The notes below the pieces were generated by a model that was not told the origin of the DNA, did not search any database, and saw nothing but the letters and a program-made list of their open reading frames with translations. A DNA stretch of 64,000 bases from Squalus acanthias. Its lineage: Eukaryota. The stretch's first letter is position 1, and every line of letters starts with the position of its first letter. The stretch covers positions 2,108,001-2,172,000 of the forward strand of contig JASTWF010000034.1 in the NCBI GenBank assembly GCA_030390025.1, written 5' to 3'. The translations under genes and the position numbers were made by a program. This document shows positions 30,869 to 45,819 of this stretch, one piece after another.

Positions 30869-30971
30869 TTTATTAAGTTTCATTTAAAGTTTTAATTGAT
30901 TTACAGTAAATTTTGATTTGTCCAACCAAAAAGAGCAACACCAGGTTATAGTCCAACAGTTTTATTTGAAA

Positions 30972-31010
30972 TCACAAGCTTTCGGAGCTTACTACTCCTT
31001 CGTCGGGTGA
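30972..31010 (-). ncRNA. Minimal type I hammerhead ribozyme motif in the inverted Penelope pseudo-LTR
   Basis: Exact reverse complement of 32253-32291. Confidence 0.65.
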
Positions 31011-32252
31011 AGTAAAGAGATACAGAATCGCCAAAGCATATATAGATAGAGAACAATGCATGTGTACCTTACAATTGCAGACAACTAAATTAAATCATCC
31101 TGACTGTTTATCTGCCGAGGTGTGATAAAGTTAATCAGGTCAGCCAGGAAGGTACCACATCAAAGACATAGCAAGATACAACTGAGACAATGAGGTGGAG
31201 TCGCAGGGGGTCTAACGTGTCAAAAGCTGCCGTCTGTATGTAAAACGATAAGCTTTAAAATTTTTACTTTTTTACTGGGAATCACATCTGTGAACAAGCC
31301 AACGAAGACTCGAGTCCGGATCACGTCATGTATCGTGACATAAACAACGCCATGTTCTTCGCAGCCTTCAACATGTCATCGATGACGACAAACACCTCGC
31401 TAAGGCCATCCCCACGCCTCCACTACTTGCCTTCAAACAGCCGCCTAACCTCAAGTACCATCGTTCGCAGCAAATTACCCAGCTTTCAGGATAACAGCGA
31501 CCACGACACCACACAACCCTGCCACGGCAAACTCTGCAAGACATGCCAGATCATCAACACAGATACCACCATCACACGTGAGGACACTACCCACCAGGTA
31601 CATGGTACATACTCATGTGACTCGGCCAACGTTGTCTACCTCATACGTTGCAGGAAAGAATGCACCGCGGCATGGTACATCGGCGAGACCATGCAGACAC
31701 TGAGACAACGTATGAACGAGCACCGCGCAACAATCGCCAGGCAGGATTGTTACCTCCCACTCGGGGAACACTTCAGCAGTCAAGGACATTCAGCCTCGGA
31801 TCTGCGGGTAAGCGTTCTCCAAGGCGACCTTAGGAACACACGACAACGCAAAATCATCGAGCAGAAACTGATAGCCAAGTGTCGCACTCATGAAGACGGT
31901 CTCAACCGGGATCTTGGGTTTATGTCACGATACATGACGTGATCCGGACTCGAGTCTTCGTTGGCTTGTTCACAGATGTGATTCCCAGTAAAAAAGTAAA
32001 AATTTTAAAGCTTATCGTTTTACATACAGACGGCAGCTTTTGACACGTTAGACCTCCTGCGACTCCACCTCATTGTCTCAGTTGTATCTTGCTATGTCTT
32101 TGATGTGGTACCTTCCTGGCTGACCTGATTAACTTTATCACACCTCGGCAGATAAACAGTCAGGATGATTTAATTTAGTTGTCTGCAATTGTAAGGTACA
32201 CATGCATTGTTCTCTATCTATATATGCTTTGGCGATTCTGTATCTCTTTACT

Positions 32253-32291
32253 TCACCCGACGAAGGAGTAGTAAGCTCCGAAAGCTTGTGA
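32253..32291 (+). ncRNA. Minimal type I hammerhead ribozyme motif in the Penelope 3' pseudo-LTR
   Basis: TCAC-CCGACGA-A-GGAG-tagtaag-CTCC-GAAA-GCTT-GTGA: stem I TCAC/GTGA, stem II GGAG/CTCC, GAAA box and palindromic AGCT in place of stem III. The core reads CCGACGA instead of canonical CUGANGA. Confidence 0.7.
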
Positions 32292-32338
32292 TTTCAAATA
32301 AAACTGTTGGACTATAACCTGGTGTTGTGCGACCTCTC

Positions 32339-33345
32339 AGTGTTTGATGGGACAGTGTAGAAGCAGCTTTACACTGTATCAAACGTGGTCTGAACCTGCC
32401 CTGGTAGTGTTTGATGGGACAGTGTAGAGGCAGCTTTACTCTGCATCTAATACAAGCTGTACCTGCCCCGGGAGCATTTGATGGGACATTGTAGAGGGAG
32501 CTTTACTCTGTGTCTAACCTGTGCTGTACCTGCAGTGGGAGTGTTTGATGCGACAGTGTGGAGAGAGCTTTACTCTATCTAACGCGTGCTGTAACTGCCC
32601 TGAGGGTTTGATGGGACATTGTAGAGGGAGCTTTACTCTGTATCGAACCCGTGCTGTACCTGTCCTGGGAGTGATTTGATGGGATAGTGTAGAGGGAGAT
32701 TTACTCTTTATCTAATCCTGCTTTAACTGCCTTGGGAGTGTTTGATGGGTTAGTGCAGAGGGAGCTTTACTCTGTATGAAACATCGTCTGAACCTGCCCT
32801 GTGGGTGTTTGATGGGACAGTGTAGAGGAGTTTTACTCTGTATCTAACCCGTGCTGTACCTGCCCTGGGAGTGTTTGATGAGACAGTGTAAAGGGAGCTT
32901 TACTCGGCATCTAACCCGTATTACACGTGTCCTGGGAGTGAGTTGATGGGATAGTGTAGAGGGAATTTTACTCTGTATCTAACCCATGCTGTACATGCCC
33001 TGGGAGAGTTTGATGGGACAGTGTAGAGGGAGCTTTACTCTGTATCTAACCCATGGTGTTCCTGCCCTGGGAGTGTTTGATGGGACCTTGTAGAGGGAGC
33101 TTTACTCTGTATCAAGCTTGGTCTGAACCTTCCCTGAGAGTGTTTGATGAGACAGTTTAGTGACAGCTTTACTCTGAATTCAACACATGCTGTACCTGCC
33201 CTGGGTGTGTTTGATGGGACATTGTAGAGGAAGCTTTACTCTGTTTCTAACCCGTGCTGTTCCTGCCCTGGGAATGTTTGATGGGACGTTGTTGCTGGGG
33301 CTTTACTCTGTATCTAAACCATGCTATACCTGCCCTGGAGTGTTT
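32339..33345 (+). repeat. 67-bp satellite array, ~15 units
   Basis: Tandem units visible. Confidence 0.95.
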
Positions 33346-33892
33346 ATAGAGTTATACAGCACAGAAAGAGGCCCTTCGGCCCATCCTGTCTACACCGGCC
33401 ATCAAGCCCTGTCTATTCCAATCCCATTTTCCAGCACTTGGTCCGTAGCCTTGTATGCTATGGCGTTTCAAGTGCTCATCTAAATGCTTCTTGAATGTTG
33501 TGAGCGTTCCCGCCTCTACCACCCTTTAAGGGAGTGAGCTCCAGATTTCAACCACTCTCTGGGTGAAAATGTTTTGCCTCAAATCCCCTCTAAACCTCCT
33601 GCCCCTTACCTTGAAACTATGCTCCTAGTTATTGACCCCTTTACGAAGGGAATTATTTCCTTTTTATCCACCCTAGCTATGCCCCTCATAATTTTGTACA
33701 CCTCAATCAGTTACCCCCTCAGCCTTCTCTGCTCTAAGGAAAACAACCCCATCCTGTCCAGTCTCTCTTCACAGCTGAAATGCTCCAGCCCAGGTAACAT
33801 CCTGGTGAATCTCCTCTCCACCCTCTCCAATGCAATCACATCCCTCCTATAGTGTGGCGACCAGAACTGCACATAGTATTCCAGCTGTGGCC

Positions 33893-34483
33893 TGTTAGGG
33901 AGAAATTATTTCACTCCAGTCTGTTGATGGGTAAAAGCAAAAACAGTGTATTTAATGTTCAGAGATCCCTGGGAGAAGCGTCACAGACCTTGCTCAGTCT
34001 GGTGACTACAACTTCTCGACCTCTCGTTGTCAATGACAACCTTTTATTGAAGAGTTGTCCAATCACATAGTTACAAAATATCACATGTTTACAAGTATGT
34101 CAATTCAAACTTAAACAATTAATTTGTTATATTCTAAACAATTTATGTCAGTTCAAACTAAATCATTAATTCGTTATATTTCAATTCAAACTAAATAATT
34201 ATGTTGCAAACTGAACCATTAATTTGTTATATTCTTATCTCTGTCAGTTACAAACTAAAAGCATTAATGACGTTTCTATGCAGTCTGTGGAGAGGCCCTG
34301 TGTCTGGTTTTTACAGTCTTCTATTGTGTTATGGCCTTGGATGTTGCTAAGTATCACAACGCTCAACCAGGCCTTATCTTCCACCTGGGCTCTTCTATTT
34401 CATACAGAAACGAGAACTTATTATTTTAATTTAACATGAGTTCAAATTAACTCTTTCACTCCCATTAACTCTTTCACTCCCCT
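33893..34483 (-). repeat. ERV 3' LTR, preceded on the minus strand by polypurine tract AAAAGGAGGGAA
   Basis: Direct repeat of 41185-41775; its inner terminal TGT is replaced by A residues. Confidence 0.95.
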
Positions 34484-34725
34484 TTTTCCCTCCTTTTGGT
34501 CCCGTACCAAATTAAAAATTCTGGTCAGGGATACCGACTTTCCCGCATTTATCATCCCCGGATTACATCTGTGTTGATAAATTCGCCTCTCTCTTCTATC
34601 TATCCTTGGTGTCGGGTGTCTGTATGAAAAGGAAAGAGCTTTACATTTCGATATCCTGTAGTGGCTATTCATTGCTTGGTTCAATAGTGACTACAGCAAC
34701 CGGCATCATTCTGTCCATAGCTGCC

Positions 34726-35491
34726 TTACAACATGCATTTAAAATCATCAAGGTAACAGAGTGCTATTCCAATTACAAGAATAATTATCAGTCCATGCAT
34801 CAAATATGAAACGCATGACCCCCCAAACAACCATCCCCACCAGTTTGCTCCTGCGGTTTCGTGTAACTTCCGAACTTCCCTCTGTATGTGCTCAGCCAAA
34901 TCAGTTATATTTTCTGAACTGTCAGGAATGTATGTACAGCACTCTGTCCCAATCAATCCACATGTACCCCCTTTTTCTGCTAGGAGGTAATCAAGTGCCA
35001 TTCGGTTCTGTAGCGTCACTGTCCTTATCGCTACCATCTCGGCGTTCATGTCTGTTAGAGCTTCTGCTGTATCATTCCCAACCTGTTCTAAAATCTCTGC
35101 CAACAACCGTATCTCTTTAATAGCTCTTGCGACTCCGTATGGGGGTAGATAGATCGCGAAGTATCTTTCAGCCTCATTAATTTCTCGTTTATAACGATAG
35201 GCTGGGTGTTCCTTGAGGTTTAGGCAGTGATGTACAAAGGGTACGACATACCCCAATGAAGTAAGTGTTATTATAGGCTTCATACCTACTCCATATGTTA
35301 TTCATTATCATGATTTTACCCTTCCATGGCCCCCCACTGGTCATGTTTGGAATAGTACCGAGATTCCACGTCCCATACGTGAAGGTTGCACCACCGTACC
35401 CACTCCTGGTCACCTTTAATTCATATTTCTGCTCGCATTTACTCCAACCCAATGTGAAGCAAATCAGAATGAGGCATAATGCCCAGACCAA
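34726..35491 (-). pseudogene. env: Gamma-type retroviral env remnant (SU mostly deleted, TM largely intact)
   Basis: Signal-like VWALCLILICFTLGWSKC, furin site RYKR, fusion peptide FAIYLPPYGVA, immunosuppressive domain LQNRMALDYLLAEKGGTC, CX6CC (CGLIGTECC) and membrane anchor LMHGLIIILVIGIALC. Confidence 0.95.
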
Positions 35492-35579
35492 TCCCTTTAC
35501 CAGGGGCCATTCCCATTCTGTATACAGTATCCACTCTTCCTCACTCCTATACCAGGAATTTGTTTTGTTGCGTCCATTT

Positions 35580-36402
35580 CTACACTGGTGAAGGATTATA
35601 GGTCTTCAGCTGGGTCCAGTGTTTCCACCTTCCCATTCCCTTTATATCAATACAGGCACACGTGTCTCCACTGATAATGGCTTGATAAGGACCGGACCAC
35701 CTTGGGGCAAACCCCTGCTTTGCAGGCAGGACCTTAACCGTTACTTTCGTTCCTGCAGAGGGAACGTTTGTTAACGCAGTCAAGTCTAAATTTTTATCCT
35801 TTTCTTCCTATCTTTCTCTAACCTGCTGTCTCATTTCTTTTAACTGCTTGCTTAATTCAAGGACATACCGCCGGATCCTGTCCTGTAAGGGTCCTAGTTC
35901 CTCTCCTCCCATGATAATTCCATAAGGGAGTTCCATTGCTCGCCCTGTCATTAATTCATAGGGAGATAAGCCTGTCGTTCGATTAGGAATAGCTCGCAAT
36001 TTCATCAGGATTGCGGGCAGAGCATCTACCCAAAATTGGTGGTTTTCACTCAGAGCCTTTGCTAATGCGGTTTTTAGGGTCCGATTCATTCGCTCCACCA
36101 TCCCAGAGCTCTGAGGACGGTAGGGAATGTGGAATTGTTGTTTTATTCCCATCCATGCGCAGATATTCTTTACTACCTTTCCCGTGAAATGGGTTCCCTG
36201 GTCAGAGTCGATTTGAGTAGGAACCCCCCATCTCGGTATTATTTCCTCTGCCATTATCCGGGCCACTGTGGCAGCTGTGCAGTTTCGTCTGGGGAAAGCT
36301 TCCACCCATCGGGTGAATTGATCTATTACCACTCGGCAGTAAACCCTTCCCCTTGAGATCGGTAGGGGTCCCGTAAAGTCTATTTGTATCTTTTCCCAGG
36401 GA
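35580..36402 (-). pseudogene. pol: Retroviral integrase core and C-terminus (N-terminal HHCC domain missing)
   Basis: PWEKIQIDFTGPLP..VIDQFTRWVEAFP..IDSDQGTHF..PYRPQSSGMVERMNRTLK (DDE triad), then APRWSGPY..WKHWTQLK after a frameshift. Confidence 0.95.
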
Positions 36403-36564
36403 CACCTTATTCAAATTAAATTCATTGTTCCGGTGTTCCAATTCTGCCCCGCCTGGGGTATCCTCTGTTTCTTCTATCTTTCCTGATGTTACCCCGCCTG
36501 GGGTCTCCTCTACATTGCTTTGGATCTTCTCTTTCGGTGTGCTCAATTAATTTGTTGGTGCTGG

Positions 36565-37700
36565 TTAGTCATAGGCATGAGTACCCAATTGGCTTATGTA
36601 TCTTACTACATAGGTTACATATATCAAATACATTATCATTACAAGTTGGAGAACTACCAGAGCGTGTGAAATAATACAAACGTAAGGGTGTGCTGATGTA
36701 TTAAGCTCAATATCCCACCAGTGTGAGTTGTCCCCTATGCTGTCAATTTCAATATCTATTCTCGAATTGTCTTGCTCCAAAACATAAAAATGCTTTAGGG
36801 AGGAGTTCAGTCGCATCACGAGCTCACTGAAATTCTCAAACAACAGGGGAATGGAGTATCCGAATTGTGCCACATAATTGTGTAACTCATACGTAAAAAC
36901 GTGTTGGTTGATGGGACAGGTCCTGTTAGACCCATAAGCATGGTAATTTCGGTAGTGGTGACACAGGAGGCACCACCAAAACCACCTCATACTGGATTCG
37001 CACTGGTTTTTTCCCACGCTCTTTTACCAACAAAACACAATTATTACAGTCATAGTTCAATTCAGTCTTACAATCATTTCAAGCGACATTACAGTTTAAC
37101 ATCTAGTCAACAAATCATGGACTTAAAAGATTCTCCAGATCTCTCTTTTACTCATATCCATCTTGTGGATAATTCTTACTAAACATGATTTCTCCTTAGC
37201 CCTCAATTGTCCCAATCCAGATTCCATGTAACTCTCCACTTCAACTTCAATTTCAATCCCTCCAACAGGTACCAGTGTATTTAACTCTATTCTGATTGTT
37301 TCATTAATTAGATAGTTTCTCGATGGAGTATGTGTCAATGCTTTAAAAGTTGTCTCGCTCTCCTGAACCACATTAACCATTTCATGTTTTGCTGTTATCA
37401 AGTAACTGAGCATGTCTGAGACCCGTTCTTCAGTGCAGTTTCAACATACATTCCCGGATGGCAACTGCCTCACATGTAACAAATCACATTTGCACACTCA
37501 TATCGGTATCTCCACATCATGCCACATGTGCCCTTCTCGGGCATTCAGGTATCTTATCAAAAGATTGTCTGGAGGTCTTTGTTCATCTTCGTCTGCATGG
37601 TCCCGATGTCTTTGATAGTGGCCAGACTATCAAATTCAGTTTCCTTAAAAAGTTCATTATAGGCAGGGACACAAATGTCTCCAAGAGAAAGCTATCAATT
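36565..37700 (-). pseudogene. Decayed membrane-glycoprotein (second env-like) remnant inside the ERV
   Basis: ORF 36565..37017 has a Cys-containing ectodomain piece with N-x-S/T sites, a heptad-like stretch (FSELVMRLNSSLKHFYVLEQDNSRIDIEI), HWWD and a hydrophobic anchor (IISHALVVLQLVMIMYLIYVTYVV). Upstream fragments lie at 37123..37413 and ~37550-37660. No ISD or CX6CC. Confidence 0.6.
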
Positions 37701-38524
37701 TACTATTCTTAGCTACTCTTTCCTGACTTTCACTAAGAAGTTTGGAAAATTCTCAATTGGTGGTGTAATTCTCCTGTTTCTATCTCACCCTCAATCACTT
37801 CCTTTCTCCATTTTACACATCCTATTCATTACCATTCATATCTCATTCATGAGCCCTGGAGGAACTTTACTGTCCAGTACAATATTTAAGATTGAAAACA
37901 TAGATCAAACATTCTCACTTGGTCCAAGTTATTAACACTTCTTATTTATCATTATTTTAGAGGATCTTTTATTTTCCCAAAAGTAACCCAATATATAGTG
38001 CCTGAGTTCATTTTGTCATTTCAAAATTATCCCAAAATCCAAACAGCAGTACTGTTGAACTGACAGGTTTGTCAATGTTCAATTTCATTTCTATAACTTA
38101 AACAGCTGTCAGTGGAAAGGGTTAACTCCTTTGCAGGGTTTTTTTTTAAGAAGGCACAACGAAACATTGTCAGACGCACGCAATTGCGTCATTTCACGTA
38201 ACTGAACACGAACAGAAAAAACAAAACAAACCAGTACATGCTTGTAGAAAACCATATATTACATCATATTTCTTATTGGCCTTTCTTCAGATGCCTTTCC
38301 AAAATACTGTAAAAACATTGAATATAACTGGAGAAAAATTAGTTTTTCACATTTAAGCAAATCAAATTGCTTTGGAAGAGTTCACCATAGCAACCGCGAC
38401 TCCAAGGTTAAATCTTAGACCAAAACTTAATATTTTGTTGAACAAACTTTTTGTTCTTCTCAGTTTTGCACATCAGCTTAACTTAAATTGTAGTTCAAAG
38501 TTTTTTTTTCAATTCTTGTGGCAC

Positions 38525-38750
38525 AATTTATTGCAGCCACACATCGTGGCATTGCCTTCGCTACTGGATCCCTCTTTAACTAACTGTTGAATCGGCTCTG
38601 CTTTCCCTGCAAAGTCTGATATAAAACTCCTGTCTATCCCTGACAGTAAAGGCGAATTTCCCTTGTGATTCCTCTGCCAATGGTATGGACCAGAACCCGT
38701 TCTGTATCCAAGACTGTAAATATTTTAAAGTCTGGTTTCAGACCATTAAA
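38525..38750 (-). pseudogene. pol: Fused remnants of retroviral RT
   Basis: Manual translation gives FKIFTVLD..QNGFWSIPLAEESQGKFAFTV, then RSFISDFAGKAEPIQQLVK, then DPVAKAMPRCVAAI; the YxDD region is deleted. Confidence 0.8.
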
Positions 38751-39439
38751 TATCATATTCAATGTGGTCTACACAAATTTACACCAACCAGAATTTCACC
38801 GTGCACAATAAAAGTCTGGTTTTAATAGGTTAATTAACCTTAATAACTCAAATTCAATCTAGATCAACATTTTCTTTTAAACTAACCAGTACCACATGGA
38901 AAAGAAAGAAACCATAGCCACATTAACAAAGAAACAATTACCCATGCCTTGTCCATCATTCAAATTCATTTTTCTTCCAGGCACATTGGCAACTGTGACT
39001 TCAAGGCTGAAGCTTATTTTTTGTAAAACAATTAACAAACTTAAAACAACAAAACAAGTCTTCAAAGGGTTAAACAGCTTTTCGTTCTCTGTACAAAAGA
39101 GTGGGTGGAGCCAAAACAAAAATGACAGACACTTTTTTAAAGACAGACTTTCAGACAAAAGAAATACTGCAACTCCTTAAACATTCACAGTCAGGCAAAC
39201 TCTCACTCTTTGACACACACTTTCACGCAAACTTAGATCCCAGCATTCCTTTTAAGATTCCTTTCACTCAACAAATCTTGTGTTTTATTTGTCTCGGCAC
39301 AGACATTAATAACTTCCATGTCGGTAAAACTTTAAATTTCTCTCTTTTTTTTCTTTTTACATAGGTGTCTCAGCAGCTTTCCTAGCATTCCAAATCCCTT
39401 TTTTTTGGTCTAAGCTGAGTTTCAGATTGGTTAGCCTGC

Positions 39440-39603
39440 AATTTAGATCTTTTCCGTCTTTATCTTTGGTTTGTTGGACGGGGCAAATCAGTTAAAGATA
39501 CTGATGCTCCTGTATCAACGAGCATTTCACACGATTGGCCCCCTAATAATGCTGCAACGTAGACTCGGTTATCCGAGCCTCCTTTTACTGGGGCCACCTC
39601 CCG
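39440..39603 (-). pseudogene. pro: Retroviral aspartic protease N-terminal half, in frame after the gag TGA
   Basis: KSQ*REVAPVKGGSDNRVYVAALLGGQSCEMLVDTGASVSLTDL; DTG at 39516-39508 is in the same frame as gag. Confidence 0.9.
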
Positions 39604-40733
39604 TCATTGACTCTTCCCCTTTGACTTGAGGTACTCCATAAAGTCCCTTCTATTCTCCAGACTGAGATAAGCACCCTGTGTCTGGTCCACGTCTCCTTTC
39701 TTCTGCCAGCAGTTGTGACTCTGGTGTCCTAGCTTACCACAATAGTCACATGCCCCTTTCTTTCCAGTCCTGCAATCATTTGCCATATGTCCCACTTTTC
39801 CACAACTATAACAGCTCCCCTGAATCCTCTTGTACGGTTGCGATGCCCCCCCTGCTGCTACCCTTTCCTGTTTAATTTTAACACCTCCCTTTTCGGTGGG
39901 TTCAGAGTCCTTCGCATCTATCTGACTTGCCCATTGAACTGCGAGATCATACGTAGGGGCAATCAACACTCCTAATTTTAGGCGTTGTGGATTTGCTTGC
40001 CCTGATGATTCGCAATAAGCGTCATCCCACATTTCCTCTGGATTTCTCCAGAACTCTGCGTTCTGGCTACGGGGTTTCAGGGTTCCCAAATCTTTGAGAA
40101 TGGCTTGTTTTTCAAGAGGCGTGAAAGCCCGGTATTGATCTTGTGCTGCCCCCTGGTGTCGTAATACGGATGCCATCGGTACTGCCGGTACGTCCCCTTT
40201 AATTTCGATTGGGGCCGAGGCATACGGTGGGGGCTTTTCTTTATCCTCATCATTTCTGTTTCCTCTATCTGTCAATTCCATCCGTTTTATTGTTCTTTCT
40301 AATTCGGCTATTTTCTTTTCTTGTTCTTCCATCTTACTAGTTTGTGTCGTAATCTTTTCTGTTAACATTATTAACTGATGTGTTAAAATTACTCAAGCCT
40401 TTCTAGTTTTCTTTTGTTTCTGCTCCTCCCACCACTCCCATTGCGCCAGGGATTTTCCTAATGGATCCCACCCATCTTTCCTCATTTTATCAATCAAACC
40501 CTTTTGGTCCTCGGCGTAGAGCCGACTCATGGGGCCCCAATCGGGTTCCTCACCTTTCTCCATAATGTATTAATATCGTTACTAGCTTACCGCTCTCCGG
40601 CCCACCCTAGCAACTCGTTTTCAGAGGTCTGCCTATCATCCACCATAAGTATGGTGGCGGCCCCGACTTGGAACAATCTTGCTCACAGAGGTGAGTTTTG
40701 GGCAGCCACTTGGCCCCTTTCACATGTAGCCAT
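39604..40733 (-). pseudogene. gag: gag remnant: coiled coil, PPPY late domain, deleted capsid, two CCHC knuckles
   Basis: ORF 39604..40368 has KMEEQEKKIAELERTIKRM, KPPPYAS, CYSCGKVGHMANDC and CDYCGKLGHQSHNC. The probable ATG at 40733 is followed by stops. Confidence 0.9.
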
Positions 40734-41166
40734 TAATACATTATCACAACACGTCATACAATCCAACAGATCCCGCAACGCAACACATCAGAGAGGTTCT
40801 TACAGATTCTTTTGTCTGTCTCGGATTCCCAACTACCTCTGATTATCACGTGGGGCCCAATCGCCCTCTTAATTTCGGCTCAGTATGGGTCCTCGAGACA
40901 TTTACAGTCCGAAATAACACATCAGGCTTCAAATATCTTAACTACTATTAATACGTTTGGTTAACCTTATTATTTCAATATTACAAACACCTTATGCGCT
41001 CCCTAGGTTTTAATAAACTGTTTGTTACCCGTCACAGACACCAAATACGTCACATACTGCGGTTGCCTTCACACCGCCCTGCCAAGTGACCCAATTTCTG
41101 GGTGGTCAAAGATTTGACTACTCGCCCTGTTCACTGGTACAGACAGTCTTTCAGCTCCGAAGTATC

Positions 41167-41182
41167 CCTGCCGACTACGCCA
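41167..41182 (-). other. Primer-binding site complementary to the tRNA-Ser 3' end
   Basis: The minus strand reads TGGCGTAGTCGGCAGG starting 2 nt after the 5' LTR, complementary to ..CCUGCCGACUACGCCA of vertebrate tRNA-Ser (recalled sequence). Confidence 0.88.
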
Positions 41183-41184
41183 AT

Positions 41185-41778
41185 TGTTAGGGAGAAATTA
41201 TTTCACTCCAGTCTGTTGATAGGTAAAAGCAAAAACAGTGTATTTAATATTCAGAGATCCCTGGGAGAAGCGTCACAGACCTTGCTCAGTCTGGTGACTA
41301 CAACGTCTCAACCTCTCGTTGTCAATGACAACCTTTTATTGAAGAGTTGTCCAATCACATAGTTACAAAATATCACATGTTTACAAGTATGTCAATTCAA
41401 TCTTAAACAATTAATTTGTTATATTCTAAACAATTTATGTCAGTTCAAACTAAATCATTAATTCGTTATATTTCAATTCAAACTAAATAATTATGCTGCA
41501 AACTGAACCATTAATTCGTTATATTCTTATCTCTGTCAGTTACAAACTAAAAGCATTAATGACGTTTCTATGCAGTCTGTGGAGAGGCCCTGTGTCTGGT
41601 TTTTACAGTCTTCTATTGTGTTATGGCCTTGGATGTTGCTAAGTATCACAACGCTCAACCAGGCCTTATCTTCCACCTGGGCTCTTCTATTTCATACAGA
41701 AACGAGAACTTATTATTTTAATTTAACATGAGTTCAAATTAACTCTTTCACTCCCATTAACTCTTTCACTCCCCTACA
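41185..41778 (-). repeat. ERV 5' LTR, 594 bp
   Basis: TGT..ACA termini; AATAAA-type and AT-rich internal repeats; adjacent to the PBS. Confidence 0.96.
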
Positions 41779-42931
41779 GGCCTAACCAGCGTTTTGTACA
41801 ACTCCATCATAACCTACCTGCTCTTATCTTCTATGCCTCGGCTAATGAAGGCAAGTATCCAATATGCCTTTTTAACCACCTTATCTACCTGTCCTGCTGC
41901 CTTCAGGGATCTATGTACATGCACGCCAAGGTCCCTCTGATCCTCTGTCCTTCCTAGGGTCCTACCATTCATTGTGTATTCCCTTGCCTTGTTTGTCCTC
42001 CCAAAATGCATCACCTCACACTTTTCAGTGTTAAATTCCATTTGCCACTGTTCTGCCCATCTAACCATCCCGCCTATATCGTCCTGTAGTCTGAGGCTTC
42101 CCTCCTCGCTATTTACCACTCCACCAATTTTCGTGTCATCTGTGAACTTACATTCATATCTAAATCATTAATGTAAACTACAAACAGCAAAGGAGCCAGC
42201 ACCGATCCCTGCGGTACACCACTGGCCACAGGCTTCCAGTCACAAAAACAACCTTCGACCATCACCATCTGCCTCCTGCCACTAAGCCAATTTTGAATCC
42301 AATGTGCCAAATTGCCCTGGATCCCATGGCCTCTTACCTTCTTGACCAGTCTCCCATGTGGGACTTTATCAAAAGCCTTACTGAAGATCATGTAGACGAC
42401 ATCAACTGCACTATCCTCATCCACACACCTAGTCACCCCCTCAAAAAATTCTATCAAATTGGTTAGAAATGATCTCCCCCTGACAAAGCCATGCTGACTA
42501 ACCCTGATTAATCCTTGCCTCTCCAAGTGGAGACTAATTCTGTCCCTCAGAATTTTTTCCATTAATTTCCCTATCACTGATGTTAGGCTCACTGGCCTGT
42601 AATTCCCTGGTTTATCCCTACTACACTTCTTGAACAATGGTACTACGTTAGCTGTTCTCCAGTCCTCTGGCACCTCCCCTGTGGTCAGAGAGGTTCTGAA
42701 AATGTGTGTCTTGTGTCGCAGCCCCTGCAGTCACCCCGCTTGCCTCACACAGCAGCCTGATATACATCCCGTCAGGGCCTGGGGATTTATCCTCTTTTAA
42801 GCCCGCTAAAACCGCTAGTACCTCCTCCCTCTCAATACTAATTTGTTCAAGTATATCACAATCCCCTTGCCTGACTTCTATGCCTACATCGTCCTTCTCC
42901 ACAGTTAACACAGATGCAAAATATTCATTTC

Positions 42932-45085
42932 CGAGCTTTACTCTGGACCAAACATTGTCTGAACCTGCCCTGGGATTTTTTGATTGGACAGTTTAGAGAG
43001 TTTTTCTCTGTATCTAACCCGTGCTGTACCTGCCCTGAGAGTGTTTGATGTTACATTGTAGAGGAAGGTTCACTCTGTATCTACCCTGTGCTTTACCTGC
43101 CCTGGGAGAGTTTGATGGGACAGTGTAAACGGATCTTTAATCTGTATCTAATCTATGCTGCACCTGCTTTGGGAGTGTTTGATGGGCCAGTGTTGATGCA
43201 ACTTTACTTTGTGTCTAACTCGTGTTGTGCCTGTCTTGGAAGGGTTTGATGGGACACTGTAGAGGCAGCTTTAGTCTGTATCTAACACATGCTGTACCTG
43301 CTCTGGGAGAGTTTAATGGGATAGTGTCGAGGGAGTTTTAATCTGTTTTACTCGTGTTCTGCATGTCCTGGATGGGTTTAATGGGACAGTGTAGAGAGAG
43401 CTTTACTCTATCAAGCGTGGTTTGAATCTGCCCTGGGAGTGTTTTCCTGGGACTGTTCAGAGGGAGATTTACTCTATCTAACCTGTTTTGAACCTGCCCA
43501 GGCAGTGTTTGATGGGACAGTGTAGAGGGATCTTTACTCTGTATCAAACGTGGTCTGAACCTGCCATGGGAGTGTTTGATGGGACAGTGTAGAGGGATCT
43601 TTACTCTGTATCAAACGTGGTCTGAACCTGCCATGGGAGTGTTTGATGGAACAGTGTAGAGGGAGCTTTACTCTGTATCGAACCGGTGCTGTCCCTACCC
43701 TGGGGTTGTTTGATGGGACAGTGTAGAGGCAGCTTTACTCTGTATCTAACCCATGCTGTACATGCCCTGGGGGTGTTTGATGGGACAGTGTAGAGGGAGC
43801 TTTACTCTGTACCTAACCCGTGCTGTACCTGCCCCGGGAGTGTTTGATGGGACAGTGCAGAGGGAGCTTTACTCTGTATCTAACCCATGCTGTACCTGCC
43901 CTGGGAGTGTTAAATTGGACAGTGTTGATGCAGCTTTACTCTCTCTGTCGAACTCGTGTTCTGCCTGTCCTGGACGGGTTTGATGGAACAGTGTATAGGG
44001 AGTTTTACTCTGTATCTTAAGCGTGCTGTACCTGCCATGGGGATGTTTGATGGGATATTGTAGAGGGAGCTTTACTCTGTATCTAACCTATGCTGTTCCT
44101 GCCCTGGGAGAGTTTGATGAGACAGTTTAGAGGGAGCTTTACTCTGTATCTACACATGCTTTACCTGCCCTGGGAGTGTTTGATGGGACAGTGTAGTGAG
44201 AGCTTTACTCTTTACCAATCATTGTTTGAACCTGCCCTGGGAGTGCTGGATGGGACAATGTAGAGGGAGATTTACTCTGTATCTAACCAGTGCTGTACCT
44301 GCCCTGGCCGTGTTTGATGGGACAGTGTAGAGGGAGCTCTAAACTGTATCAAACATGATCTGAACCTGCCAGGGGAGTGTTTGATGGGACAATGCAGAGA
44401 TGAAATTTACACTGTATCTAACCTGTGCTGTACCTGCCCTGAGAGTTTAATGGGACACTGTAGAGGGAACTTTACTCTGTGTCAAACATATTCTGAAGCT
44501 CCTGTGGGAGTGTTTGATGAGATAGTGTAGAGTGAGATTTACTCTGTATCTAACCTGTGCTGAAACTGCCCTGGGTTGATTTGATGGGACATTGAAGAGG
44601 GCGCTTAACTCTGTAGCTAAATCGTGTTGTGCCTGTCCTGGGAGAGTTTGAGGGGAAAGTCTAGAGTCAGCATTACCAGTATAAAACATGGTCTCAACCT
44701 GTCCTGGGAGTGTTTCATGGGACAGTGAAGAGGGAACTTTACTCTGCATCTAACCCGTGTTATACGTGTCCTGGGAGCGATTTGATGGAATAGTGTAGAG
44801 GGAACTTTACTGTGTATCTAAATCGTGCTGTACCTACTCTGGGAGTGTTTGATGGGACATTGTAGAGGGAGCTTTACTCTGTATCTAACCTACGCTGCAC
44901 CTGCCCTGGCAGTGTTTGATTTGACAGTGTAGAGGGAGCTTTACTCTGTATCTAACCCGTGCTGTACCTGTCCTGGGAGTGTTTGATGGGACAGTGTAGA
45001 GGGATCTTTGCTCTGTATCTAACGCGTGTTGTGCCTGTCCTGGACAGGTTTGATGGAACAGTGTAGAGGAAGGTTTACTCTGTGT
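42932..45085 (+). repeat. 67-bp satellite array, ~32 units; a few more units at ~45615-45810
   Basis: Tandem units visible, with recurring variants (AAACGTGGTCTGAA and CTCGTGTTGTGCCTGTC types). Confidence 0.97.
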
Positions 45086-45615
45086 CAAATGGTATGTGGG
45101 CGTTCATTGCAAGAGGATTTGAGTACAGGAGCAAGAATGTCTTACTGCAGTTATACAGGGCCTTGGTGAGACCACACCTGGTGTACTGTGTGCTGTTTTG
45201 GTCTCCCTACCTAAGAAAGGATATACTTGCCACAGATGGAGTGCAGCGAAGGTTCACCAGACTGATTCCTGGGAGGATAGGACTGTCGTTTTAGGAGAGG
45301 TTGGGTCGACTAGGCCTGTACTCACTAGAGATTAGAAGAAGGAGTGGGCATCTGATTGAAACGTATAAAATTCTGACAGTGCGAGAAAGGCTGGATACAG
45401 GGAGGATGTTTCCCCTGGCTGGGGTGTCTAGAACGAGGGGTCACAGTCTCAGGATACGGGATAGGTCATTTAGAACTGAGATGAGGCGAAATATCTTCAC
45501 TCGGAGGGTGTTGACCCTGTGAAATTCTCTACCACAGAGGCTATGGAGTCCAAATCACTGAATATATTTATGAAGGAGATATAGATTTCTAGACACAGGC
45601 TCGAAAGGCCGAATG
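45086..45615 (+). mobile_element. CR1 3' fragment
   Basis: ORFs 45082..45294 (LYRALVRPHL) and 45301..45522. Confidence 0.9.
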
Positions 45616-45819
45616 CTGAAACTGCCCTGGGAGAGTTTGTTGGGCCAGTGTAGAGGGACCTTTACTCTGTATCTAACCTTTGCTGAAACTGCCCTGGGAG
45701 TATTTAATGGGAAAGTGCTGAGGGAGACTTACACTGTGTCTAAGTCGTGTTGTGCCTGTCCTAGGAGAGTTTGATGGGGCAGTGTTGGGGCAGATTTACT
45801 CTGCCTCTGAACTATTCTG

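Follow-up and report, generated by a model that had tools for sequence, protein, structure and literature searches.

Structure of the provirus

We analyzed a window of 64,000 nucleotides from Squalus acanthias (assembly GCA_030390025.1, contig JASTWF010000034.1, positions 2,108,001 to 2,172,000), which contains an endogenous retrovirus (ERV) on the minus strand at 33893-41778. Its limits are given by a pair of long terminal repeats (LTRs) and a 4-bp target-site duplication, GGCC, present at 41779-41782 (5' copy, within a CR1-like long interspersed element, LINE) and at 33889-33892 (3' copy). From the 5' end, the minus strand carries an LTR, gag, the start of the protease gene, a reverse transcriptase (RT) scrap, a glycoprotein remnant, the integrase (IN) core, a gamma-type env, and the second LTR. 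This order, given in the initial annotation, is real, as indicated by the LTR pair, the target duplication, and Pfam matches. The element is, with considerable confidence, a non-autonomous recombinant provirus. One retroviral family, hereafter parent family A, supplied the LTRs, gag, protease start, IN core, and truncated gamma env. In place of most of pol lies a 3-kb cassette that decays neutrally and terminates in the tail of a dead F-type env, likely acquired by RT template switching between co-packaged RNAs. F-type refers here to the fusion glycoproteins (F) of paramyxoviruses and pneumoviruses.

The 5' LTR (41185-41778; TGT...ACA) and the 3' LTR (33893-34486), both on the minus strand, are 594 nt each and are 98.8% identical across 591 nt. 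The 5' LTR belongs to the family A LTR cluster, together with those of L083, L086, and L087. Directly behind it lies a primer-binding site (PBS; 41164-41182, minus strand) that is also found in parent family A and that we take to be of the tRNA-Ser type; a polypurine tract occupies 34487-34502 on the same strand. The empty-site pattern of the CR1-like LINE was found at 3 of 203 loci with 1 mismatch. The LTR divergence of 1.2% corresponds to ~27 My at the shark rate assumed in the available text of PMC4422223 and to ~2.7 My at the mammalian rate quoted there; the label 'young' is relative and depends on the substitution rate. A tandem duplication of 18 nt is found at the start of each LTR, and the 3' LTR begins with AAA (34484-34486) at the position where the 5' LTR begins with TGT.

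Regions derived from parent family A

A search of the 3.7-Gb genome with the gag piece recovered four near-complete relatives (L083, L085, L086, and L087), each broken somewhere, with the layout gag-pro-RT-RNase H-IN-gamma env. The F-like remnant is absent from them. Compared with these loci in 200-nt bins, the provirus is mostly 91-98% identical over the leader, gag, protease start, IN, and env. Between 39462 and 36409 there is no match apart from RT, at 74%, and ~2.6 kb of parent pol has been lost.

The gag gene (39604-40563, minus strand; 92-98% nucleotide identity to parent A) has a coiled-coil N-terminus, one in-frame stop, an internal deletion of ~0.34 kb, and two CCHC knuckles (zf-CCHC, Pfam E 2e-8). 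It is followed by the 5' part of the protease gene (39463-39603, minus strand), which ends abruptly at the insert. IN (35580-36408, minus strand; rve, E 7e-20) retains the catalytic core and the C-terminal domain, has one in-frame stop, and has lost its zinc finger. In the IN tree the provirus clusters with parent A (support 100/97), and together they adjoin other snakehead retrovirus (SnRV)-like families of the same genome. The trees drew on 38 chosen loci, from which rows with more than 120 or 90 aligned residues were retained; the RT scrap of the provirus itself, being too short, was left out of the RT tree.

The gamma-type env (34690-35451, minus strand; TLV_coat E 4.6e-11; 93-98% nucleotide identity to the parent) is truncated. 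Parent residues 1-238 are missing, so the gene is without a signal peptide or the N-terminal part of the surface subunit (SU), no signal peptide and complete SU occur in one frame, and frameshifts lie near 35256 and 34761. The hallmarks of the gamma type are all present, with a furin site, an immunosuppressive domain (ISD) from 35013, and a CX6CC motif at 34962-34936 in the transmembrane subunit (TM); the last two had been pointed out in the initial annotation and are visible in the sequence. No envelope and no RT can be produced from this copy, so helpers must have supplied the copying of its lineage. It is a recombination-degraded, helper-dependent ERV, and its LTRs, gag, protease start, IN, and gamma env are assigned by sequence similarity to one SnRV-like family, parent A.

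A foreign cassette in place of pol

The place of the missing pol is taken by a mosaic cassette of 3.05 kb (36409-39462, minus strand) that is AT-rich (GC 0.37, CpG observed/expected 0.42), absent from all four parent-A loci except for the 74% RT match, and 89-98% identical to elements with other LTRs. The element is indeed a recombinant, as first proposed, with parent-A ends around a foreign center. Neither target duplications nor LTR termini, which a nested insertion of the remnant might have left, were found at the cassette edges.

Within the cassette, RT scraps joined over a ~0.37-kb deletion (38570-38753, minus strand) show 94-96% nucleotide identity to a second SnRV-like family, family D, against 74% to parent A; their match to RVT_1 is weak (Pfam E 0.029). 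Longer cassette RTs from other copies cluster with family D in a quick RT tree (SH-aLRT 96). In family D, an F-type env stands behind the family's own pol, in the normal order. Because the remnant is only ~35% identical in amino acids to the family-D env and has no nucleotide match to it, the RT scrap and the F-type tail come from different families. The AT-rich filler is also present in other non-autonomous elements. On these comparisons, the cassette combines AT-rich filler with an RT scrap of family D and with the dead tail of an F-type env from a third family.

A DNA search of the genome gave 2131 first-look candidates, and all 39 other scored matches were 95-97% identical. Clustering of the LTRs of 39 examined loci, some with partial LTR boundaries, placed the cassette in 9 of 12 LTR clusters, with at least four different PBS sequences and 91-97% identity to the provirus cassette. 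In different elements the same cassette stands ahead of gamma-type or F-type envs. Its presence across nine LTR families is the unusual feature of this system.

It is conceivable, though rather doubtful, that the cassette has been kept as a cis-acting RNA signal (for packaging, dimerization, or export) or as shared homology for the trading of ends, an explanation that is compatible with a recombinant origin. The nine LTR clusters and at least four PBS types would fit it, as would L188 and similar loci, in which little beyond LTRs surrounds the cassette. Yet identity is flat over 12 distant backbones (88-96% per 100 nt) and shows no distinctly conserved segment, different copies delete or cut differing parts, and founder hitchhiking accounts for the spread. 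The flat identity thus favors hitchhiking and use of shared homology over a conserved signal.

The first glycoprotein remnant

The first glycoprotein had been described as one open reading frame (ORF) at 37700-36565; it is in fact spread over three frames with stops. Its downstream part (36565-37042, minus strand), identified by profile and frameshift-aware alignment, corresponds to the last ~150 codons, now dead, of an env of the F type (class Ib-like), with Cys-rich strands, a heptad, a WW motif, and a membrane anchor, and with a 32-codon deletion and frameshifts. Upstream lies decayed coding-like sequence (37050-37712, minus strand) whose position fits an upstream env part and which includes a 105-codon open stretch at 37440-37126.

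The heptad-HWWD-HP-anchor ending noted earlier can be seen, and a profile built from 25 shark env proteins matches 36897-36610 with 83.6 bits. The frameshift-aware match reaches 117 bits across the 32-codon deletion and spans 37042-36593 only; 37042-36904 by itself is marginal (26.9 bits, a score reached by 1 of 40 shuffles). Farther upstream, 37760-37045 in the provirus and 41 copies scored no better than shuffles (mean 16.6, maximum 19.0 bits, versus a shuffle mean of 15.6 and maximum of 21.5), with an hhalign probability of 0.2%. The F-like identity suggested for the first env therefore applies to 37042-36565 and finds no such support upstream. Two candidate readings of the upstream part were rejected: a by-eye likeness of 37712-37050 to env N-terminal heptads, which shuffles and hhalign did not support, and the 105-codon stretch as a selected ORF, given a ratio of nonsynonymous to synonymous polymorphism (pN/pS) of 1.06 and a frame intact in 20 of 31 copies.

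With stops translated as X, the remnant had six matches among 1.84 billion proteins, all to its last ~100 residues and five bearing cartilaginous fish names. Pfam matched nothing in its three frames. Direct PF00523 matches were absent from the remnant and from long-frame relatives, which occur in several retroviral families of the same genome that keep long env frames of the remnant's class. A PF00523 search of the genome, of low information value, left none of seven candidates standing; a word-index protein search with the C-terminal frame, covering longer proteins only, confirmed 0 of 57; and Pfam and PDB sequence searches with the long-frame relatives returned no significant fusion-protein match.

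Cassette copies without the 32-codon deletion are 35% identical over 155 columns to P0010, a protein of 836 amino acids in its natural frame, whose best atlas match is Fusion glycoprotein F0 (0.93; 203 of 256 features). At Foldseek E <= 0.001, the 13 listed of 14 matches to the predicted P0010 ectodomain were all paramyxovirus or pneumovirus F (best 2.7e-6; TM-scores ~0.2). VIA ranks 1-11 for the model were foamy virus Env and F (best Z 7.1, root-mean-square deviation 4.8, 179 aligned; next unrelated Z 4.7). These two groups, represented by PDB 8rm0, 3rki, and 1ztm (see PMC11468914, as available), are the sole top matches to the predicted fold; unlike them, the provirus retains only the membrane-proximal end. 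P0010 has a single N-terminal arm and possibly an Ig-like domain (Ig_3 E 0.51). As modeled, the F-like assignment holds for the last ~150 codons only, by transitive homology.

Two full-length F-type env proteins from two different shark genera, P0006 and P0009, are 85-87% identical and possibly represent a co-opted gene. A gene of this type was not found to be kept here: the closest genome matches (63-83%) have stops or lie in pieces.

The pN/pS ratio was 1.06 for the middle stretch and 0.81 for the F tail, compared with 0.42 for IN and 0.48 for the gamma TM, the last two values including four parent copies, and the F-tail frame was intact in 8 of 32 copies. The remnant evolves neutrally, with no protein-level selection. 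Of the two unrelated envelope genes initially proposed, the remains of two env types are present and neither is intact here. That this family ever included, or still includes, a virus with two functional envelopes is hardly credible: no signal peptide, fusion peptide, or N-terminal heptad is detectable in the F tail, the longest open frame among the best 150 matches is 291 codons and most matches have a stop, and the remnant is neutral, even though a sister family (family B, below) keeps an open gamma env of 528 codons behind the F tail. The two envelopes are a recombination fossil and not two working genes.

Affinity of the RT and comparison with lokiretroviruses

The best PDB match to RT was a protease-RT-RNase H chain, 7ksf (218 bits), presumably from a foamy virus, followed by murine leukemia virus-type chains (204 bits). 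A viral-contig scan for SnRV or lokiretrovirus RT references produced 132 pattern matches, none of which was confirmed.

The initial annotation had joined a loki-like backbone, comprising gag, an RT with the motif GFWSIPL..KFAFT, and an F-like env, to the IN and gamma env of another virus. The tail is F-type, as that model would have it, and an RT scrap followed by an F-type tail is the normal order within the cassette. Lokiretrovirus Env is related to paramyxovirus and pneumovirus F, and by eye it resembles the shark F-type envs in layout (PMC7947760 and its supplement, as far as available). An F-like env is not unique to lokiretroviruses, however, because foamy virus Env has the same fold as F (PMC11468914, available text). 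The model is moreover contradicted by the descent of LTR, gag, IN, and gamma env from one parent, and by the RT scrap and F tail, which come from two further, different sources and not from a single backbone.

The RT motifs also speak against it. In the searched supplement text of PMC7947760, GFWSI occurs only twice, both times in snakehead retrovirus rows, and the lokiretrovirus RT shown there differs at this motif and at the next one, whereas the backbone and cassette RTs follow the snakehead retrovirus pattern in a comparison by eye. Lokiretroviruses are further characterized by an RT that is sister to those of all other retroviruses and by an IN related to CGIN1; an smc gene occurs in some of them only. 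No SMC match was found in the provirus or parent gag, which starts with a coiled coil. The lokiretrovirus survey, in the text available, lists no cartilaginous fish, with one supplement row recording 0 of 3 genomes (PMC7947760). We regard a lokiretroviral backbone as highly improbable. Judged by its motifs, the element is not a lokiretrovirus, and its RT matches that of snakehead retrovirus. What the cassette has in common with lokiretroviruses is an F-related Env; it differs in RT motifs, and its F-type piece is a dead passenger.

Junction series and sister elements

The 3' end of the cassette was compared in 46 hand-picked loci. In 20 of them, the cassette jumps directly to the IN core at an 8-nt motif common to cassette and parent; in the provirus this microhomology junction lies at 36401-36408 on the minus strand (AAGGGGTC in relatives). 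Six loci (L079, L181, L195, L046, L082, and L191) retain parent RNase H behind the same motif, with the cassette running on into it. A shorter cassette is joined to RNase H/IN in four loci, the cassette leads directly to a gamma env in four others, and a second F-type tail follows immediately in six. A gamma env lies within 2.6 kb in 30 of the 46. The RNase H-retaining group is likely ancestral to the group joined at the IN core, and this series indicates that the env-before-integrase order is the scar of a pol replacement followed by deletion.

Family B shares its cassette and IN core with the provirus but differs from it in LTR, PBS, gag start, and gamma env. This env is open over 528 codons in 3 of 20 stretches, and LTR pairs are 99-100% identical in most copies; a family resembling L177 seems to be the source of both env and LTR. 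Three family B loci (L033-L035) lack pol; their LTRs are near-identical, and the gamma env downstream of the dead F tail remains open for 528 codons. In five family-A hybrids (L036, L038, L039, L041, and L194), the truncated gamma env forms one open frame of ~335 codons, which begins within the IN tail read in an alternative frame and possibly encodes a putative TM-only product. Four loci (L076, L162, L180, and L190) are F+F doubles: directly behind the dead F tail of the cassette they carry the tail end of a different F-type env. The cassette is also found with other PBS sequences and no recognizable gag (no Pfam match for three of their frames) in L180, L186-L190, and L196, some of which may derive from non-retroviral LTR elements.

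Proposed origin of the provirus

The mosaic map, the three sources, the missing second target duplication, and the intermediates that keep RNase H are observed. A sequence of five steps could connect them. Filler, family-D RT scrap, and dead F-type tail would already have been combined in non-autonomous elements. While copying a family-A RNA, RT may then have changed template in RNase H, moving to the RNA of such an element, and returned in protease. A deletion over the 8-nt microhomology would next have removed RNase H and the IN zinc finger, so that the F tail now adjoins the IN core, and further deletions would have truncated gag and env. Finally, helpers with a working pol may have copied the hybrid and its sister lineages, with LTR, gag, and env ends continuing to be swapped around the cassette.

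The mosaic could also have been made at the DNA level, by ectopic recombination, gene conversion, or a nested insertion later trimmed. Thousands of copies offer potential partners for such events, and the 5' junction shows no clear microhomology. But the cassette has neither target duplication nor LTR termini, parent pol was lost and not split, and no long homology links cassette and parent A at either junction. The downstream junctions are many and different. The LTRs of the hybrids are paired, and those hybrids whose flanks were read show target duplications of their own. We consider a DNA-level origin unlikely.

Several points weigh against recombination between co-packaged RNAs as reconstructed here. 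Template switching itself is an inference, and DNA-level ectopic recombination could yield the first hybrid. Clear microhomology was not seen near 39462. Loci were picked from top matches and not at random. Four protein queries and one tail piece, used to look for the donor of the F-type tail, retrieved only cassette copies or envs less than 45% identical, and every long-frame env examined is below 45% amino acid identity to that tail. Pfam, profile, and hhalign searches gave no support for 37712-37050 as env. The structure models are of low confidence (pLDDT 44 and 47, the latter for P0010), the pN/pS values for IN and gamma TM draw on parent copies, and the SnRV-like clade call was made from motifs and a PDB ranking. 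With these points taken into account, we still favor template switching between co-packaged RNAs.

Sequences flanking the provirus

Arrays of a 67-nt tandem satellite (32277-33376 and 42911-45802) lie on either side of the LINE into which the provirus is inserted. At 30936-32327, an inverted repeat of 410 nt, perfect and interrupted by a spacer of 572 nt, is likely a very young non-autonomous DNA transposon.

Related systems and implications

The closest parallel is recKoRV1, a recombinant of the koala retrovirus KoRV with PhER for which microhomologies are described and co-packaging is suggested (PMC6112702, as available). As in the provirus, the LTRs, gag start, and env end of recKoRV1 come from one young ERV and the middle from an unrelated decayed ERV; both show normal target duplications and remobilization in many copies. 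Microhomology is reported at some recKoRV1 breakpoints, compared here with 8 nt at the 3' junction and none clear at the 5' junction. Unlike recKoRV1, the middle here is a mosaic of at least three sources, the cassette is common to nine LTR families, and the two env remains belong to different fusion subclasses.

Combination of an SnRV-related pol with a gamma-type env has already been published for ERV-SA.a-Ppe (bioRxiv 10.1101/2021.11.23.469661). XtERV-S likewise has a class III backbone, a gamma env, and a Ser PBS (PMC8278194); it is ERV-L-related and, unlike the provirus, intact. These two elements and CmiERV lineage I (PMC4422223) are class III or SnRV-related ERVs with a gamma-type env, comparable to parent A with its SnRV-like RT and gamma-type env; in the text available for them, no F-type remnant inside pol is described. 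Among the titles listed in an open-access library, none dealt with an ERV that has two envs or with a captured cassette common to several elements.

The finding reveals neither a two-envelope virus nor a shark lokiretrovirus. Mismatched trees are the usual evidence for env swapping between retroviral lineages; in this genome the steps are preserved in thousands of copies. Remains of F-type and gamma-type env stand on one RNA with junction intermediates still present, both envelope classes meet in the same elements in a cartilaginous fish, and recombination between distant families can be counted within one genome. We tentatively raise the possibility, which we think the less probable one, that the non-coding cassette with its dead F-type tail serves at least nine unrelated LTR families in common, either as a hub for recombination or as a cis-acting RNA signal. 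If so, shark retroelements that use different primers could exchange LTR, gag, and env ends through it, and it would be a visible route for the exchange of gamma-type and F-type envelopes.

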